The notes under the pieces were generated by a model that was not told where the DNA came from, ran no database searches, and saw only the letters and a list, made by a program, of their open reading frames with translations. A DNA stretch of 35,574 nucleotides from a virus. Taxonomy: Duplodnaviria > Heunggongvirae > Uroviricota > Caudoviricetes. Position 1 is the stretch's first letter, and every line of letters begins with the position of its first letter. Location: the IMG/VR virus record IMGVR_UViG_2698536477_000007; one strand, written 5' to 3'. This document shows, piece by piece, positions 1,063 to 9,064 of the stretch. The position numbers and the translations under genes were made by a program.

Positions 1063-1404
1063 TCAGCCAGCATTGCGGCCTGATCGGGATGATTTTTGGG
1101 TAACGTCGATTGAAGCCTGATCGCCCTCCGACTGAGAAGATCCATCAAGAGAGAGAGCCGGGGCAATTTGCCCGGCGGCAGGTAGCGTCTTATCCTTTAA
1201 CAGCCAAAACATATACTTTTCAAATCGATCTGCCTGAAGAACCGACTCCACGATTTTAGCTCTGGCGCTCTTTTGCCCTGATTCATAATTCCTTACGGTG
1301 GCCAGAGATAACCCTGTAATTTCAGCAAATTGTTTTTGCGTTAAGCCCTCCGCCTTACGTATCTGGCGTAATTTTTCCGCGTAGTCTATTGACAAGATAA
1401 CCAT
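1063..1404 (-). CDS. C: Immunity repressor, P2 C-like helix-turn-helix protein
   Basis: 113 aa; N-terminal segment LTQKQFAEITGLSLATVRNYESG is a helix-turn-helix and ...GQIAPAL... recalls P2 C; sits between int and a divergent gene as in P2. Confidence 0.75.
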   Translation of the reverse strand: MVILSIDYAEKLRQIRKAEGLTQKQFAEITGLSLATVRNYESGQKSARAKIVESVLQADRFEKYMFWLLKDKTLPAAGQIAPALSLDGSSQSEGDQASIDVTQKSSRSGRNAG

Positions 1405-1507: not shown

Positions 1508-2032
1508 ATGCGGGACTTCATTGCCGATAAAGAGTTATCTGACACCGATCACACAACTGGAGCGGCGTACATCAACGCCGATACCAGTCAACAAGAAGCA
1601 ACAGATAACAACGACGAACAAAAGCCACAGCGCACATATAAAAAAGGGGCAACCCTGCGGCTGGATGGCCCAATAGCCGGGCTTTGCTCACTTGAAAAAG
1701 GGGCCGCCTACATCGGATTAACAAAAACAGCATTACGCGCAGCTCTCCAGCGTAACCAGATGCCAGGGCATAAAACCCGCTCAAACCCTGAAGATGAGAA
1801 TTCGGATGGTGTTTGGTGGTTTAACGTCAGAGAGTGGGACAAGCTGGCCGACGAACTCCCGGAATGCGAGCCACCAGAATGGCACAACTGGAAAAGCTAC
1901 TGGACATACGACCGCCAGAAAAGAAAGTTTACCCCGGCTGATAAGGAAGATTGCCAGACCGTCAATGGAAAACGGGTTTACAAAGGCAGAAAGTCAAAGC
2001 TGGAACAGAGCCAGGATGTAAACGAACGGTGA
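1508..2032 (+). CDS. Cox/Apl-position DNA-binding protein (putative excisionase or early regulator), 174 aa
   Basis: Divergent from C; GAGAGG ribosome-binding site; internal helix-turn-helix-like segment LTKTALRAALQRNQMPG; longer than P2 Cox so assignment is positional. Confidence 0.45.
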   Translation: MRDFIADKELSDTDHTTGAAYINADTSQQEATDNNDEQKPQRTYKKGATLRLDGPIAGLCSLEKGAAYIGLTKTALRAALQRNQMPGHKTRSNPEDENSDGVWWFNVREWDKLADELPECEPPEWHNWKSYWTYDRQKRKFTPADKEDCQTVNGKRVYKGRKSKLEQSQDVNER

Positions 2033-2434: not shown

Positions 2435-2454
2435 CCCGGCACGAAGGAGGATAT

Positions 2455-2973
2455 ATGACGATTACACCAGAAGAAGAAGGTATGCATAAGAAATACAGCG
2501 AACACGGGAGTAAGGCTGGCGAAGTAATCGCCATTGATGAGGATTGCCTGATAACAGGAAACCCCTGGCTGGCAACAGAAAGGGATTTAGAAGGCAAAAC
2601 ATTTTTTGTCAGAGCAATAAAGCACAAAGATAGGGTTGTGGGTGGAATTATTTATTCAACCAGTACGATTATTCCTGATAATTATCTGGATATTTCTTTT
2701 AGACCTGTAAGCATTCAGGGGTGCGAGGCATACCTTAATTATGTTGCGGAGCTAAAGGAAATTAACATGGACTACATGTGGCCAATCGTACAACGCGAAA
2801 TAATGCGACGAAAATCAGAAGGCTTCAATGTGAAAATTGAGTTTTTATCGACGTTAATGGGATTTTTACAAAAACCATTGATTCTTTTCCCCTCCCTTGA
2901 CCGGAACCTGCCAGTCAAAGAAGGGGTGGAAAAATATATTGTTGAACAAGTCAGAGATCTGGTTTGTCTTTAG
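2455..2973 (+). CDS. Hypothetical protein, 172 aa, in low-GC island
   Basis: Strong AAGGAGG ribosome-binding site 7 nt upstream of ATG 2455; AT-rich; no motif recognised. Confidence 0.7.
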   Translation: MTITPEEEGMHKKYSEHGSKAGEVIAIDEDCLITGNPWLATERDLEGKTFFVRAIKHKDRVVGGIIYSTSTIIPDNYLDISFRPVSIQGCEAYLNYVAELKEINMDYMWPIVQREIMRRKSEGFNVKIEFLSTLMGFLQKPLILFPSLDRNLPVKEGVEKYIVEQVRDLVCL

Positions 2974-3273
2974 AGGCGCGAATAAAGCACGCAAGATGAT
3001 TAATACTATGAAAGCGTGTCCTTATATTCACGGCATAGGGAGCAAAGGCTTGTTGCCCCTCTATCTGACGCAAAATTTCTGACGCAGTTTTTATCAATGC
3101 ATCCCTTTTATCATCGGGAAGTTCGCTAATGAGGAGCGAAATAAGCAGATCGGACACCACTCCCACTGAGTCTCTTGGGTCGGTCAACTTATCAACAGGA
3201 GCCACAGCAAGATTAGTTGTGTAAATGCTAACCAGGTATTCAGTGATAGCGTCCTTAACGCTTTTATCAATCA
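2951..3273 (-). CDS. Hypothetical protein, about 107 aa, convergent with the 172-aa gene
   Basis: Minus-strand ORF; chosen start MIDKSVKDAITEYL at 3273 has an AAGGT ribosome-binding site; 3' end overlaps 2455..2973 by 23 nt. Confidence 0.45.
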
Positions 3274-3382
3274 TGTTAGTTACCTTTTTTCTGGTTGTGT
3301 GGAAACACCAGAATACCACGCGCCGGGCGTGGTTAAACATCCCGGCACTGATTTTCATTTAACTTAAACGGAGTTTTCCGAT

Positions 3383-4726: not shown

Positions 4727-4935
4727 TCAGCAAGTACACCACCAACGCACGTAAACCCGGTAAAGACGCACGCCACCACATCGCCGTACTCCGCAATCTG
4801 TTACTGGAGGAAATCGACGACTTCACGGCAACGCTGAGCGGTCCGGGCGCACCAGTAACACCGGGTGAGATCCACCGGGACCTTAAACGCCGTATTGAAA
4901 ACGCCATTGATTACATCCTGAACCCGACCGAATAA
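4723..4935 (+). CDS. Hypothetical early protein, 70 aa
   Basis: ATGA start/stop overlap at 4723-4726; in-frame with ORF 4684..4935. Confidence 0.5.
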   Translation: MISKYTTNARKPGKDARHHIAVLRNLLLEEIDDFTATLSGPGAPVTPGEIHRDLKRRIENAIDYILNPTE

Positions 4936-4961
4936 CCGGAACAGTAACGGAGGTTATCGCG

Positions 4962-5516
4962 ATGAGACTTACACCAATGGGAATACCGGGCAAAGCCCCG
5001 GCACATGTGAAGGCGTGGACACAGCAGGAAGATCGGTTACTCATCTCGCTTTATCAGGAACACAACACACATCAGATGGCTGAACGAATTCAGCGAACCC
5101 GTAAAGCAGTTATGCACCGGATTCGTTTTTTACGTAATCGTGGGCTGATTGGCCGCAAGAGAAAAGCACCACTGAGTACAGAAGCCATAGCCTTTCTTAT
5201 TAAAAACCGTCATGTAAAAACCGCACAGGAAATGGCTCTGGAAGTGGGATGCAGTGAGTGCACAGTGAGGTACACACTGCGTAAACGGGGTTACAACCTG
5301 AAAAAATGCGGTGAGAACCACCATTGCGCCAGATACAGCGATCATCTGGTTGAGCTGGTCACGGAGCTACGCGACATACACAACATGACGTTCTGCATGA
5401 TCGCTGAACACATCAACAGCACGATACAGATGCACATTAACGACGATGCGGCGTTTCATCTCTACCACCGCCGCACCGCAACTGACGCAGTGCTCTGTGA
5501 ACTGTTACCGGACTGA
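4962..5516 (+). CDS. Putative DNA-binding protein with two helix-turn-helix-like segments, 184 aa
   Basis: GGAGG ribosome-binding site; segments QMAERIQRTRKAVMHRIRFLRNRGL and AQEMALEVGCSECTVRYTLRKRGY look like helix-turn-helix units. Confidence 0.55.
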   Translation: MRLTPMGIPGKAPAHVKAWTQQEDRLLISLYQEHNTHQMAERIQRTRKAVMHRIRFLRNRGLIGRKRKAPLSTEAIAFLIKNRHVKTAQEMALEVGCSECTVRYTLRKRGYNLKKCGENHHCARYSDHLVELVTELRDIHNMTFCMIAEHINSTIQMHINDDAAFHLYHRRTATDAVLCELLPD

Positions 5517-5531
5517 GTGATCATCATGCAC

Positions 5532-5766
5532 ACACAAAAAAACCGCTTGCCAGCGTTCGCCTGGTCGGGTTACAGTTTTCCCGCACCTCATAAAACGGGT
5601 GCCGGGTTTCGCAGCCTGCTGACAACCAAAGCGCACAACCGCGCCAGCGGTTTTTTTGTGCGTACTGTATTGCCACGTTTTTTTCGCGTCAGAATTATGG
5701 CGGGGCGTACGGGGCCGACTTCGGTCGGGCCGGGTTCTTTGGTTGCCGGTACTGCGAACCCCGTAC
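5532..5766 (+). other. Structured GC-rich non-coding element (candidate RNA leader or terminator-promoter module)
   Basis: Perfect 15-bp inverted repeat CACAAAAAAACCGCT (5532-5546) / AGCGGTTTTTTTGTG (5645-5659); hairpin plus T7 run at 5636-5656; 9-bp perfect stem CGTACGGGG (5705-5713) / CCCCGTACG (5758-5766) enclosing a cUUCGg tetraloop hairpin (5714-5727); ORFs overlap in all frames here. Confidence 0.35.
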
Positions 5767-5836
5767 GTCTCGCCACCCACAGTTTCGCAGCTCTGGATGG
5801 TGAGTTTTCAAAACTTACAACCAAAGAGGCCACACC

Positions 5837-6064
5837 ATGGCAAACCGCAAGCAACAGCGCGCCCGCGCTGAGCGTCTTCACATCCGCACCGAAATCAACC
5901 GCAGACTCTGGCGCGCATCACGCGTCGCGCAAATCATGCATATCAACATGCTGCATGAGCGCACGCACGCGCTATCAAACCGTTACTGCGCTGCTGTCTT
6001 CAGCTATCTCGCCGAAGATATGGCAGAACTGCAAAGCCTCATCAACCAGCAACACCACCACTAA
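5837..6064 (+). CDS. Hypothetical small basic protein, 75 aa
   Basis: AAAGAGG ribosome-binding site 8 nt upstream. Confidence 0.5.
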   Translation: MANRKQQRARAERLHIRTEINRRLWRASRVAQIMHINMLHERTHALSNRYCAAVFSYLAEDMAELQSLINQQHHH

Positions 6065-6131
6065 ACAACATCCTGAAGCCATCCCGCCCCGTGCGCGGGA
6101 GGCTTCCGCACGTCTGTTACCGGAGGTTCTC

Positions 6132-6548
6132 ATGAAGAGCGTTAAGGGACTTTCAGATATTCAGGACTTTTTTAACTGGATGTGGGCAGTGGATCCCCGG
6201 CTGGCTTCCCGCCTGAACGACTGGCACGACTATTACCGCCGCGCCTGTAAACGGGCCGCCAGACGCGTCACCACATACGGGGATTTCTCCTTCACCGTTG
6301 ACGACCGTTACCGCGTGGACGTGAAAGGTGATGGTGATGGTTTTGGTTTATTTCACATCAACGGAACCGACAGCACCGCCATCAGCTGGTCGTCGTCAGA
6401 GATGACGCTTGTTCTGGAAATGACAAACCACAGCGTGGCCGTGAAAGGTATATACACCGCAGAAGACTTTATCGGTGAATACCAGCGCCTTCTCGTGCTG
6501 TACCGGGCAGCGTTTCAGGCGGCAACTGCCGGGGAGTGCGACGCATGA
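6132..6548 (+). CDS. Hypothetical protein, 139 aa, immediately upstream of A
   Basis: GGAGG ribosome-binding site 7 nt upstream of ATG 6132; stop overlaps A start (ATGA at 6545-6548); the 5' part of the 343-aa track ORF is judged non-coding. Confidence 0.6.
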   Translation: MKSVKGLSDIQDFFNWMWAVDPRLASRLNDWHDYYRRACKRAARRVTTYGDFSFTVDDRYRVDVKGDGDGFGLFHINGTDSTAISWSSSEMTLVLEMTNHSVAVKGIYTAEDFIGEYQRLLVLYRAAFQAATAGECDA

Positions 6549-9064
6549 GCGACCATAACGCACAACTGGCGTACCCGTGGAACGCCCCGCTGCCGGTTAT
6601 CGATCCTGAAACGTTCGGCAGAGCGCAACCAACCGCATTACGCCAGGCCATTCAGAGCTACATCAACGAAGACATTCGCACTGACGCCAGACTGGATGAA
6701 GAAACCGTCGCCTTCCTGACAACCACAGACGAAGGGAAGCGAATTAATTCGCATCTTCATCACGACGAAGAGCGTCGGATCAGACTGGAAAAACTGACGC
6801 GACACAAACGCGAAAATCCACCCACACTGGTATCTGAAGCCATGGCGGAGCTGCGCGCCCTGCCGCCGTTTCTTGCCGGTCCGCTCATCCGGGACCTGGC
6901 ACGCCTGAGCCGCAAACAGGAGAGCGCACGCCGGGAAGGGCTTAAGAACAACAGCGCATACGCGGCGGATAACTTCGTTCGTCACGGGCTGCGTGCCCGC
7001 CTGAAACGTATCGCCCGTGTGAATGAACGCTTTGCCACCCCGGCCTTTAAGGCCACCGCCGCGCGCGAACGGCTGGATGAACTGCTTATGCTGCCGCAGC
7101 TGAGCCGTGACGAAATCCAGCGCCTTGCCACCCTGACCGCCACCGCGTTTTCCACCGCACTGGAGCGCGCATGTGATGAGGTCATCGAAAAGACCGGCAG
7201 GGGTGACGATGACCTGCTCACCTGGTTACTGACCTACCAGCCACTGGCACACATGGCGTTAAAACTGGGTATCACGCCACCCTGCTGGCCGTCGCTGGAA
7301 ATCAGGCCCGACCGCCGCACCGCCCCCGACCCGGAACAGGTGCCGGGTGCGGTCATGCGCCTTTCCTGTGCGACATGGTGGAACAGTCAGTTAAGACACC
7401 TCCGGGACATCTGGCGTGAAGAACTGTTACGCGCCGCAGGTCTGGTGTCACGTAAGACATCGGTATATATCAGCCATGAAGCGTTACTGGACTGGCGCGA
7501 AAAACGCCAGCGCACCCGCGATTTTCTGAAGGCCTGGGACATCGAGAACGAAGAGGGAGAACGGTTCAGCCTTGAGGATATCTACTGGGCAGGTCTCTCT
7601 AATCCGCGTAACCGCCGTAACGAGATGATGGCCTGCGTCCGGGGGATGGAGCAGGTCGCCGAAGCACGCGGCGACGTGGCGTTTTTCGTCACCGTCACAG
7701 CCCCTTCCCGTTTTCACAGCGTGAACGATGACGGCAGTCTGAACCCGAAATACTGCGGGGCAACGGTACGTGATGCCAGTGATTATCTGGTTTACCGCTT
7801 TTTCGCCGCCGTCCGCAAGGCCATCAACAAGGCCGGGCTGGGCTGGTACGGCGTGCGCACCGTGGAGCCCCACCACGACGGTACACCGCACTGGCACATG
7901 CTGGTATTCACCAGCCCGGAAAACGAAGCCCGTATCACTGAAATCATGCGCAACGCCGCCATCAGGGAGGACCGCGCAGAGCTGGGTGATGATATATCCC
8001 CGCGTTTTAAATGCGAAAAAATCGACCCGGCAAAAGGCACACCGGCAAGCTATATCGCGACCTATATCGGTAAGAACCTGGACGCCAGCGCCTTCATGGG
8101 GAATGACCCGAAAACCGGCAAACCTTACGTCGATAAGGAATCAGGCAAAACCATGGCCGAAACCGTGGAGAACGCCATCGGCTGGGCGGCCCTTCACCGC
8201 ATCCGCCAGTTCCAGTTCTTCGGTATCCCGCCCCGCCAGGTATGGCGCGAACTCCGCCGCCTTGCCGGGCAGATGGCCCGTAACCCGACTGCCCCGCAGC
8301 GTCTGGACCATGACGACATTGACGCCATACTGGCCGCCGCCGACGTGGGATGTTTTGCCACCTATATCACCCGCCAGGGTGGTGTGCTCATTCCCCGCAA
8401 CACGTACCTGGTCCGCACCGCATACGAAACTGCCGAAGAGGCCAACGACTACGGCGAATTCCCGCAACGCATTTACGGCGTCCGCGCCCCGTCACTCGGG
8501 GAGCGCTACACCATATGCACCCACCCGGACACCTGGAAACTGGTCAGACGTAAGCCGGAAAACGAAGACCGCACGGACGAGGGTTTTGACGTTGAGTGCG
8601 GCTTTGCCGCACCTTGGACTCGTGGCAATAACTGTCCCCCTGACCAGAATCTGACCATAAACGACCCGCCAGAAAGGCAGCCGGACGGACGCAGGGAGCA
8701 GCGACTTACCCTGCCGGAAGGTGATTTGGGTGAATGGTTAAGGTCACTGACCCCTACAGAGCGAAAACAACTCACCAGGCAGCTGAAAAACCCGCCACCT
8801 GACACGGAAACCGTGAAAAACGGCGGCATCAGTGCGCCCGCTGGCGGCGTTCGCGTGAGTGTCGCACTGACCGCTGAGCCACACATCACCGCACAAATCA
8901 CCCGCGAGCTTGATGCGCTGGGCGTGCAGCTGCATGAAAGCGCCGTCGTTTCCGTCCGTCACGGTGCCCGCGTGCGCCTGGCTGACGGACGCACCGCGTA
9001 CTGGAATGACAGCACCCGCCGCATTGATATCACCCCCGCACCGAATACGGAGGCGCCACAATGA
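6545..9064 (+). CDS. A: Rolling-circle replication initiation endonuclease, P2 gpA / 186 RepA family
   Basis: 839 aa; contains ...GTPHWHMLVF... (HUH-type metal-binding motif of P2 A-like initiators); large early gene in the expected position. Confidence 0.88.
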   Translation: MSDHNAQLAYPWNAPLPVIDPETFGRAQPTALRQAIQSYINEDIRTDARLDEETVAFLTTTDEGKRINSHLHHDEERRIRLEKLTRHKRENPPTLVSEAMAELRALPPFLAGPLIRDLARLSRKQESARREGLKNNSAYAADNFVRHGLRARLKRIARVNERFATPAFKATAARERLDELLMLPQLSRDEIQRLATLTATAFSTALERACDEVIEKTGRGDDDLLTWLLTYQPLAHMALKLGITPPCWPSLEIRPDRRTAPDPEQVPGAVMRLSCATWWNSQLRHLRDIWREELLRAAGLVSRKTSVYISHEALLDWREKRQRTRDFLKAWDIENEEGERFSLEDIYWAGLSNPRNRRNEMMACVRGMEQVAEARGDVAFFVTVTAPSRFHSVNDDGSLNPKYCGATVRDASDYLVYRFFAAVRKAINKAGLGWYGVRTVEPHHDGTPHWHMLVFTSPENEARITEIMRNAAIREDRAELGDDISPRFKCEKIDPAKGTPASYIATYIGKNLDASAFMGNDPKTGKPYVDKESGKTMAETVENAIGWAALHRIRQFQFFGIPPRQVWRELRRLAGQMARNPTAPQRLDHDDIDAILAAADVGCFATYITRQGGVLIPRNTYLVRTAYETAEEANDYGEFPQRIYGVRAPSLGERYTICTHPDTWKLVRRKPENEDRTDEGFDVECGFAAPWTRGNNCPPDQNLTINDPPERQPDGRREQRLTLPEGDLGEWLRSLTPTERKQLTRQLKNPPPDTETVKNGGISAPAGGVRVSVALTAEPHITAQITRELDALGVQLHESAVVSVRHGARVRLADGRTAYWNDSTRRIDITPAPNTEAPQ

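Follow-up and report, generated by a model that had tools for sequence, protein, structure and literature searches.

Immunity switches involving RNAs of the IsrK and C4 families are already known from P4, P1/P7 and Gifsy-1, and neither the two RNA families nor this type of mechanism is new. In P1 and P4, the C4 and CI RNAs are matured by RNase P, and untranslated RNA is terminated by Rho. According to one report, C4 blocks translation at the ribosome-binding site of ant/icd (PMC12197685); according to another, the CI RNA of P4 base-pairs with seqA and with seqC, leading to premature termination (PMC4825925). An IsrK-like sequence is required for P4 lysogeny, and the name "IsrK-C4 immunity system" has been given to this arrangement (PMC3632133). 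In Gifsy-1, short IsrK in trans switches on translation of the downstream antirepressor and induces the prophage, and Hfq binding of IsrK, together with trans-activation of the downstream gene, is known only for this prophage (PMC4825925).

The locus described here lies in a 35,574-nt stretch of viral DNA, the whole of which is referred to as the window. The element at positions 5520-5836 is assigned, with a probability of about 0.85, to an IsrK-C4 RNA immunity module composed of two known phage small-RNA genes. The module has seqA-CI-seqC of P4 and a1b1-c4-a2b2 of P1/P7 as homologues; here it forms part of the early operon in a P88-like (P2-family) Escherichia coli prophage. What is new is the presence of the module in the P88-like, P2-family lineage, for which no published description was found. 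Searching the literature for isrK or C4 in combination with P2-like phages or Peduoviridae gave nothing on such a context, and a 2026 survey of P2-like phages makes no mention of derepression, antisense RNA or satellites.

Identity and genomic setting of the module

The window is a P2-type prophage carrying genes for an integrase, a C-type repressor, Cox, gpA, an Ogr-like protein, portal and terminase, arranged in the order int, C, Cox, small accessory ORFs, RNA module, 75-aa ORF, 138-aa ORF, gene A, Ogr-like, portal and terminase (Table 1). An E. coli chromosome matches window positions 5400-5900 at 100%, and 1,243 of 5,426 complete E. coli genomes contain some match to this 501-nt query, a count that includes matches of only about 34 nt. 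A search of the whole 35.6-kb window against Rfam at curated thresholds returned exactly two matches, isrK and C4, both on the + strand, both inside 5520-5836 and both covering the full length of their models. The initial annotation, which was made from the sequence by itself, had described one structured leader in this region; it consists instead of two RNA genes of known families. A tRNA gene, considered as a source of the acceptor-like stem, is ruled out by a tRNA/tmRNA scan of the window, which returned none. All features of the initial annotation were recovered, with positions shifted by about 1 nt. The label "GC-rich" proved inaccurate for the region, which at 55.5% G+C equals the window mean, the C4 part alone reaching 66%. 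On the other hand, the observation of ORFs in every frame without a convincing gene holds, and third-codon-position bias was found in no frame across 5520-5836. The earlier interpretation can therefore be retained as far as the non-coding character, the terminator and a small RNA controlling the module that leads to the replication gene are concerned, and it changes in three details.

Homologous loci were collected by BLAST against phage records, which returned 142-153 records. The closest relatives among these are P88-like P2-family phages (genus Xuanwuvirus) with 81-95% identity, the nearest set being P88, vB_EcoM-569R5, P884B11 and Citrobacter Shae_phiSM. Farther relatives, at about 70% identity, include many lambdoid/Stx phages, Salmonella ST64B and one Klebsiella phage. 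An isrK sequence followed by C4 at a distance of 21-35 nt is present in all 15 fetched phage loci. In one of the GenBank records, that of Stx2 phage F004 (LC710661), the two are already listed as "isrK Hfq binding RNA" and "C4 antisense RNA". In the lambdoid relatives, the module has cII/Roi on one side and an antirepressor gene with replication gene O on the other.

The 75-aa ORF that follows the module shows 34% identity over 50 aa to P4 epsilon (BLASTP, E = 2e-8), a protein annotated in the P4 record as "helper derepression protein". Its variable sites display a third-position bias (43/76, versus 23-25/76 at the other positions). An antirepressor role for the 75-aa protein is suggested by this identity over 50 residues and by a Pfam score just above the threshold. 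The 138-aa ORF showed no similarity to P4 ORF151 in BLASTP. The initial annotation had the element control the replication module; what C4 is predicted to act on directly is the epsilon-like ORF at 5837, at its ribosome-binding site, and not the replication gene itself. This ORF is predicted to be the first one under C4 control, and the 138-aa ORF and gene A are predicted to be affected through polarity.

Table 1. Positions of the IsrK-C4 module, its sub-elements and the relevant prophage genes in the window.
Feature	Position	Strand	Basis or remark
C-type repressor	1063-1404	-	
Cox	1508-2032		
Non-coding interval	5517-5836		between 184-aa DNA-binding-type ORF (4962-5516) and 75-aa ORF (5837-6064); ORF listing of 4800-6600
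Inverted repeat, left arm CACAAAAAAACCGCT	5533-5547	+	A7 tract + CCGCT; abuts -35 of IsrK promoter
IsrK promoter (predicted)	5547-5576	+	-35 TTGCCA 5547-5552, 18-bp spacer, -10 TACAGT 5571-5576; promoter scan
IsrK RNA	5583-5657	+	Rfam RF01394, 65.9 bits (cut-off 50), full length
IsrK hairpin 1	about 5583-5602	+	consensus fold
IsrK hairpin 2, a1 in loop	about 5603-5618	+	consensus fold
a1 TTCGCAG	5608-5614	+	IsrK hairpin 2 loop; complementary to a'
b1 CAACCAAAG	5623-5631	+	9/9 complementary to b'
IsrK intrinsic terminator	stem 5637-5652, T7/U7 run 5651-5657	+	terminator scan
Inverted repeat, right arm AGCGGTTTTTTTGTG	5646-5660	+	3' half of IsrK terminator plus U-tract
C4 antisense RNA (P4 CI RNA equivalent)	5693-5780	+	Rfam RF01695, 87.1 bits (cut-off 45), E = 4.5e-16
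Mature C4, 77 nt (predicted)	5699-5775	+	alignment with annotated P1 C4
C4 outer helix	5698-5714 / 5759-5775	+	
C4 UUCG hairpin	5715-5728	+	
C4 second hairpin, b' in loop	5729-5750	+	
b' core TCTTTGGTTG	5736-5745	+	within 12-nt loop of C4 second hairpin
a' CTGCGAA	5752-5758	+	single-stranded
a2 TTCGCAG	5784-5790	+	leader; complementary to a'; repeat search
b2 CAACCAAAGA	5818-5827	+	10/10 complementary to b' loop; repeat search
Shine-Dalgarno AAGAGG	5824-5829	+	of ORF starting 5837; overlapped by b2
Epsilon-like 75-aa ORF	5837-6064	+	Pfam PF25738 "Derepression protein family", 29.5 bits (cut-off 27)
138-aa ORF	6132-6548	+	phrog_3237; overlaps start of gene A
Replication gene A	6536-9064	+	Phage_GPA, 359 bits; HUH motif

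Structure of C4 and IsrK

The C4 match spans model positions 1-87 of 87, and the corresponding 88-nt segment (5693-5780) folds with -49.8 kcal/mol (z = -3.9), an energy that 1 of 200 shuffles equalled. The long hairpin with a cUUCGg loop noticed in the initial annotation is real and belongs to this larger fold, in which it corresponds to the C4 outer helix plus the first inner hairpin. The folding and covariation check proposed at that stage was run across homologous loci, and the C4 helices covary strongly. All 27 consensus pairs form in 16 of 16 sequences (432/432 cells), and compensatory changes occur in 13 of the 27 pairs. The covariation score is 0.487, compared with 0.06-0.08 when the partners are slid by 1-3 columns, and none of 500 shuffles reaches it. 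G-U pairs are frequent in C4, and because of these pairs, including one (columns 37/58) that is G-U in 16/16 sequences, the RNA strand is identified as the + strand. The 5' junction AAUUAU/GG and the 3' end ...GCCACC of C4 are identical to those of P1, and the sequence is consistent with a C4 RNA that has no promoter of its own and may be matured by RNase P to about 77 nt. Furthermore, by analogy, the context fits a C4 that would repress an antirepressor/lytic-replication operon, as an epsilon homologue and then gene A follow it.

IsrK is the equivalent of P4 seqA and of the a1b1 region of P1. The consensus fold recovers its three hairpins, with four compensated pairs. The c4-a1b1 model (RF03163), which overlaps the first two of these hairpins, remained below its cut-off here (23.6 bits versus 46.7, E = 8e-4). 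Within IsrK, the C4 target sites are copied as a1 and b1, both of which co-vary with C4.

Co-variation of the target sites

Co-variation of the target sites was measured in 16 loci including P4, and eight further P88-like E. coli prophages were assessed by inspection. In the whole-module MAFFT alignment (A1), a2 and b2 are out of register between the phage groups; this alignment was left out of the pair counts for the sites, which rely on anchored positions and longest-complement searches. In every locus, both IsrK and the leader contain, at constant positions, sequences complementary to C4, namely an a core of 7 nt and a b core of 8-10 nt. The loops are hypervariable, with 9 distinct a sequences, 14 distinct b sequences and 16 distinct combinations in the 16 loci, and the own targets are the best ones for C4 in 16/16 loci, with one tie (Stx2_112808, L015). 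The eight additional P88-type prophages provide further compensated specificities, with a and b types recombined within one lineage. The a specificity of the present locus, TTCGCAG, recurs in ASU11 and Stx1 phages. Many distinct and fully compensated specificities are thereby found within a single P88-like lineage. This co-variation of a' and b' with two remote sites is the signature of a trans-acting antisense RNA. As expected for a member of the C4 family, a' and b' are complementary in sequence to a2 and b2, and b2 is located at the ribosome-binding site of the first ORF.

Duplex energies calculated for the single sequence gave a divided result. The b'/b2 duplex has -20.9 kcal/mol, a value reached by 0 of 500 shuffles, whereas b'/b1 and a'/a2 were not above shuffles (132/500 and 134/500, respectively), and two of the four interactions beat the shuffles. 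Because the other two are no better than shuffles, the case for pairing rests on the cross-locus comparison.

Promoter, terminator and inverted repeat

The isrK model match begins 7 nt downstream of the end of the IsrK promoter, and the start predicted for this promoter lies near 5583. In alignment A1, T1, A2, A4 and T6 of the -10 do not vary among the 15 loci, and the TTG of the -35 is present in every locus read by eye. Judged from the sequence, the real sigma-70 promoter is the one at 5547-5576, upstream of IsrK. The hairpin followed by a T7 run, which had been reported about 1 nt away, was recovered by the terminator scan at 5637-5657 and is the IsrK terminator. IsrK is thus predicted to have its own promoter and a Rho-independent terminator, which would together give an RNA of ~75 nt.

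As initially described, about 100 bp are flanked by a perfect 15-bp inverted repeat, except that its arms are at 5533-5547/5646-5660 and not at 5532-5546/5645-5659. It extends to 21 nt at 90% complementarity. The repeat occurs in 12/12 P88-like loci (with 10 bp in two) and in 0/13 loci from lambdoid phages, P4 and P1. No compensated change was seen among the P88-like loci: the right arm does not vary, and the one change in the left arm, a shortening from A7 to A5 in two loci, is uncompensated. When 5518-5665 is folded, the arms of the repeat pair with each other and the terminator hairpin is lost. The left arm is possibly an UP element of the IsrK promoter or, as this fold suggests, possibly the anti-terminator half for transcripts arriving from upstream. 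Because pairing of the arms removes the terminator hairpin, a transcript from the early promoter could read through, whereas one starting at 5583, which does not contain the left arm, would terminate. The anti-terminator idea is attractive for a phage without N-type antitermination, and the A-tract fits a UP element equally well.

Alternative explanations

It is improbable that the region encodes a protein, either an "Ash family protein" (PF10554) or an orf45-like peptide starting from the conserved AUG in AAUUAUGG at 5697, although several features agree with such a product. The frame of this AUG and of 5583 (frame 0) is stop-free across IsrK, C4 and the leader in 20/23 loci, and it is open up to the start of the next ORF in 12/12 P88-like loci. 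Translated in frame 0, 5517-5836 gives a score of 29 bits with Pfam PF10554 (Phage_ASH, cut-off 26), and RefSeq labels 5526-5786 as a partial "ash family protein", the PGAP call being a pseudogene. In addition, orf45 of Gifsy-1, which starts from the equivalent AUG, has been reported to be translated (PMC4825925). Membership in the Ash protein family was nevertheless rejected: the score exceeds the cut-off, but the coding signature is absent. Variation within C4 is even over the codon positions (0.214, 0.212 and 0.239), the synonymous fraction is 0.32 in frame 0 versus 0.30-0.40 in the other frames, and no codon-position bias was found in IsrK, the spacer, C4 or the leader, whereas the adjacent epsilon-like gene shows such a bias. 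No NCBIfam model matched the region. The predicted frame-0 peptides differ freely where helices or loops co-vary, and the changes seen are explained by RNA pairing. A conserved coding frame had been named at the outset as evidence that would count against an RNA element; an open frame is in fact conserved, but it bears no coding signature, and the helices show abundant covariation. The PF10554 profile spans exactly the IsrK promoter to b2, and this family is best regarded, at least here, as the conceptual translation of RNA genes. The conservation of the open frame itself is unexplained by the module model.

The terminator-promoter junction of the initial annotation, in which a promoter at 5670-5698 makes an mRNA with a cis-acting structured leader (attenuator- or riboswitch-like) on the replication module, has become very improbable. 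A promoter-like match is present there (TTGCCA at 5670-5675, a 17-bp spacer and AATTAT at 5693-5698; 9/12 consensus matches), and the hairpin is very stable. Moreover, C4 and IsrK sequences pair in cis in the long-transcript fold, and a cis-inactive conformation has been shown for Gifsy-1 (PMC4825925). However, with two promoter-like sites in 1.3 kb versus 0.7 +/- 0.8 in shuffles, such matches are not beyond chance, and neither the -35 nor the spacer of this one is conserved. In P88, Shae_phiSM and several P88-like E. coli prophages, the -35 reads TCGCCA; in the lambdoid loci, the spacer after IsrK differs and is shorter (21-24 nt), and no TTG occurs at that distance. The putative -10, AATTAT, is the conserved 5' flank of C4, which in P1 directly precedes the annotated 5' end of mature C4, and a start 7 nt downstream would fall inside, and cut, the 17-bp helix with 8 compensated pairs. 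The co-variation of the C4 loops with two remote sites likewise points to an antisense RNA acting in trans. As the second promoter is unsupported, C4 must be supplied either by transcripts that pass the IsrK terminator or by ones arriving from upstream; C4-type RNA has these sources in Gifsy-1 and P4 (PMC4825925). It is hardly credible that the inverted repeats act in DNA, as a protein-binding site, a cruciform or an origin-related element for the replication gene. The perfect 15-bp repeat flanking about 100 bp and the nearness of gene A would suit such a function, but G-U pairs are numerous in the helices, one position being G-U in all 16 sequences, and they would be A-C mismatches on the other strand or in DNA. 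The covariance models, which are strand-specific, match the + strand only, and the module adjoins unrelated replication systems in different phages (lambda O, P4 alpha and P1 repL). The IsrK-C4 module is the reading preferred here; its family membership, the helix covariation, the three-way co-variation of the sites, the conservation of promoter and terminator, and the gene context are demonstrated by computation.

Proposed mechanism

A possible mechanism for the IsrK-C4 module was proposed in which the homologues serve as the model for RNA processing, the block on translation, polarity through Rho and the decoy function of IsrK. The sigma-70 promoter at 5547-5576 would start an RNA at about 5583, and most transcripts would stop at the 5637-5657 terminator to give the ~75-nt IsrK. 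Transcripts that read through would carry C4, which, by homology, may be cut out at AAUUAU/GG by RNase P and trimmed to a 77-nt three-helix RNA. Its a' and b' segments could then pair with a2 (5784-5790) and b2 (5818-5827), hiding the Shine-Dalgarno sequence and blocking translation of the epsilon-like ORF. The untranslated RNA would be expected to undergo Rho termination, which could keep the 138-aa ORF and gene A silent from the IsrK promoter in the lysogen; the polarity onto gene A is assumed by analogy. IsrK, as a decoy carrying a1 and b1, may bind C4 in cis or in trans and relieve the block. A rise of IsrK relative to C4 would then release the epsilon-like protein, which is expected to act on the C repressor. 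Lytic transcripts from the upstream early promoter pose a problem for this model, as they must pass the IsrK terminator and escape C4.

From the module one would predict that P88-like phages control lysogeny at a second level, by RNA, with a possible induction route via IsrK and the epsilon-like protein. It gives a function to a stretch now annotated as an "ash family protein" pseudogene or a hypothetical CDS, and P2-family prophages would share their RNA immunity logic with P4, P1 and lambdoid phages. It further prompts one to ask whether helper phages and P4-like satellites engage in cross-talk. A speculative and rather unlikely extension is that a helper-type P2-family phage took over a P4-type RNA immunity cassette including epsilon to control its own antirepressor gene and gene A, that the arm at 5533-5547 was added so that only transcripts from the early promoter read through while those from the IsrK promoter terminate, and that the a and b loops can be exchanged among phage families so that cross-repression with P4-like satellites is possible. 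If this were true, P88-like prophages could cross-repress, or be cross-repressed by, P4-like satellites of the same specificity.

Comparison with known systems

The immunity region of P4 is matched by the same Rfam families (isrK 60.8 bits, C4 74.9 bits). Its layout is PLE-seqA-CI RNA-seqC-...-epsilon-alpha with the same a1/b1 and a2/b2 positions, and b2 abuts GGAGG in P4. The order IsrK-C4-epsilon-like ORF-replication gene of the present locus mirrors seqA-CI-seqC-...-epsilon-ORFs-alpha. In contrast, P4 is a satellite with the alpha primase, whereas the present element resides in a complete P2-type phage with the HUH endonuclease gpA. P4-like satellites are characterised by the alpha primase and sid/psu/delta and lack structural genes; the window is not a P4-like satellite, with int, C, Cox, gpA, Ogr-like, portal and terminase genes all present. 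The epsilon-like ORF is the first one after C4 here (57 nt), whereas another reading frame precedes epsilon in P4. IsrK and C4 are separated by 107 nt in P4 as against 35 nt in the present locus, the a and b sequences are not the same in the two elements, and P4 is without the 15-bp inverted repeat.

In the immI region of P1/P7 (P51-a1 b1-c4-a2 b2-icd-ant), the order and spacing of the sites, as annotated in NC_005856, correspond closely to those found here. The distance from the transcription start to a1 is 25 nt both in P1, where the start is implied by the P51b -10, and here. That from C4 to a2 is 4 nt in both, and b2 stops 10 nt short of icd in P1 and 9 nt short of the epsilon-like ORF here. 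The first ORF after b2 is short in both (75 aa here, 73 aa for icd in P1). However, the downstream Icd and Ant of P1 are unrelated by name to the epsilon-like and 138-aa proteins, and P1 has a second, C1-controlled promoter. The Rfam scores are also distributed differently: in P1, C4 (68.8 bits) and c4-a1b1 (51 bits) pass and isrK (35.1 bits) is below its cut-off of 50, whereas the reverse applies here, isrK passing and c4-a1b1 failing.

The isrK-orf45 (STnc1160)-anrP region of Gifsy-1 in Salmonella contains an IsrK of the same family with its own promoter and a leaky terminator, followed by a processed stable RNA complementary to IsrK and then an antirepressor-type gene (PMC4825925). In the long transcript of the present locus, the middle of IsrK is likewise predicted by folding to pair with the downstream RNA. 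In the Gifsy-1 work, the downstream element is treated as a translated orf45 coupled to anrP, and IsrK as an activator (PMC4825925). Although orf45 starts at the same AUG as frame 0 here, the frame of this AUG is out of phase with the epsilon-like start in the present locus and has no stop until 6548. Gifsy-1 is, moreover, a lambdoid prophage, whereas the present one is P2-like. The lambdoid/Stx phages with isrK plus C4 (mEp460, ST64B, cdtI and Stx2a) possess the same two RNAs, the same promoter and the same arrangement of targets, with early regulators on one side and antirepressor plus replication genes on the other. They differ from the present locus in their nucleotide sequence (identity about 70%), in a spacer of 21-24 nt versus 35 nt, in a downstream gene for a Rha/Ant-type antirepressor and in having no upstream inverted-repeat arm.

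Protein annotations over the RNA genes

The profile of the Pfam family Phage_ASH (PF10554) is matched by the frame-0 translation of window positions 5571-5829, which extend from the -10 hexamer of the small RNA gene isrK through b2, a target site of the antisense RNA C4, and it is also matched by the "cI gene product" CDS of P4 and by the over-extended antirepressor CDS of mEp460/Stx2a_1447. The Phage_ASH protein family appears to be what results from translating the RNA genes for IsrK and C4. The frame of position 5583, with the conserved AUG of AAUUAUGG (5697), is free of stop codons through IsrK, C4 and the leader in 20 of the 23 loci, and in P88-like phages it stays open through the epsilon-like gene up to the start codon of the following ORF (window 5517-6548). 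A coding signature is absent from this frame.

RefSeq/PGAP labels window 5526-5786 as a partial "ash family protein" pseudogene. In public phage records, CDSs named antirepressor/Rha or hypothetical are drawn straight across isrK and C4; the true start codons of the four such CDSs in the table lie about 57 nt downstream of C4. In phage P13374, positions 2523-2606 of the fetched locus (L013) match the Rfam family sRNA-Xcc1 (79.6 bits, cut-off 53), adjoining antB2 approximately 0.9 kb downstream of C4.

CDSs crossing isrK and C4 in related phage loci (L-numbers, own coordinates) and ORFs in the extra accessory sequence
Feature	Sequence	Coordinates	Strand	Source
CDS running through isrK and C4	L004	2655-3806		public phage record
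CDS running through isrK and C4	L005	2655-3806		public phage record
CDS running through isrK and C4	L008	1273-2295		public phage record
CDS running through isrK and C4	L002	4002-4619		public phage record
ORF	window	2455-2973	+	
ORF	window	2951-3358	-	

Neighboring sequence and possible alternative RNA structures

On the Cox side, positions in an E. coli genome with 100% identity across 5400-5900 are offset by 633 bp from those in the window, which therefore has about 0.6 kb of additional accessory sequence (about 2435-3380) missing from that strain. A hairpin located after the epsilon-like ORF and before the 138-aa ORF contains GCCCCGTGCGC (6086-6096), which shows 91% complementarity across 11 nt to the 5' strand of C4 (5705-5715), probably by chance.

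The 15-bp inverted repeat (5533-5547 / 5646-5660) is lineage-specific, occurring in all 12 P88-like loci versus none of the 13 others. Folding of 5518-5665 predicts competition between it and the IsrK terminator hairpin; the repeat may promote read-through by early-operon transcripts or act as an UP element.

Instead of closing the C4 outer helix, its 3' strand (5769-5775) can pair further downstream with a second copy of the 5' strand sequence, TGGTGAG (5798-5804). The resulting structure cannot coexist with the C4 fold; it displays the target site a2 within or close to its loop, and a short U-run, UUUUC (5805-5809), comes next. The pairing co-varies in P4, Klebsiella NAR688 and the Stx2 phage F004, and has the appearance of an attenuator or alternative conformation.
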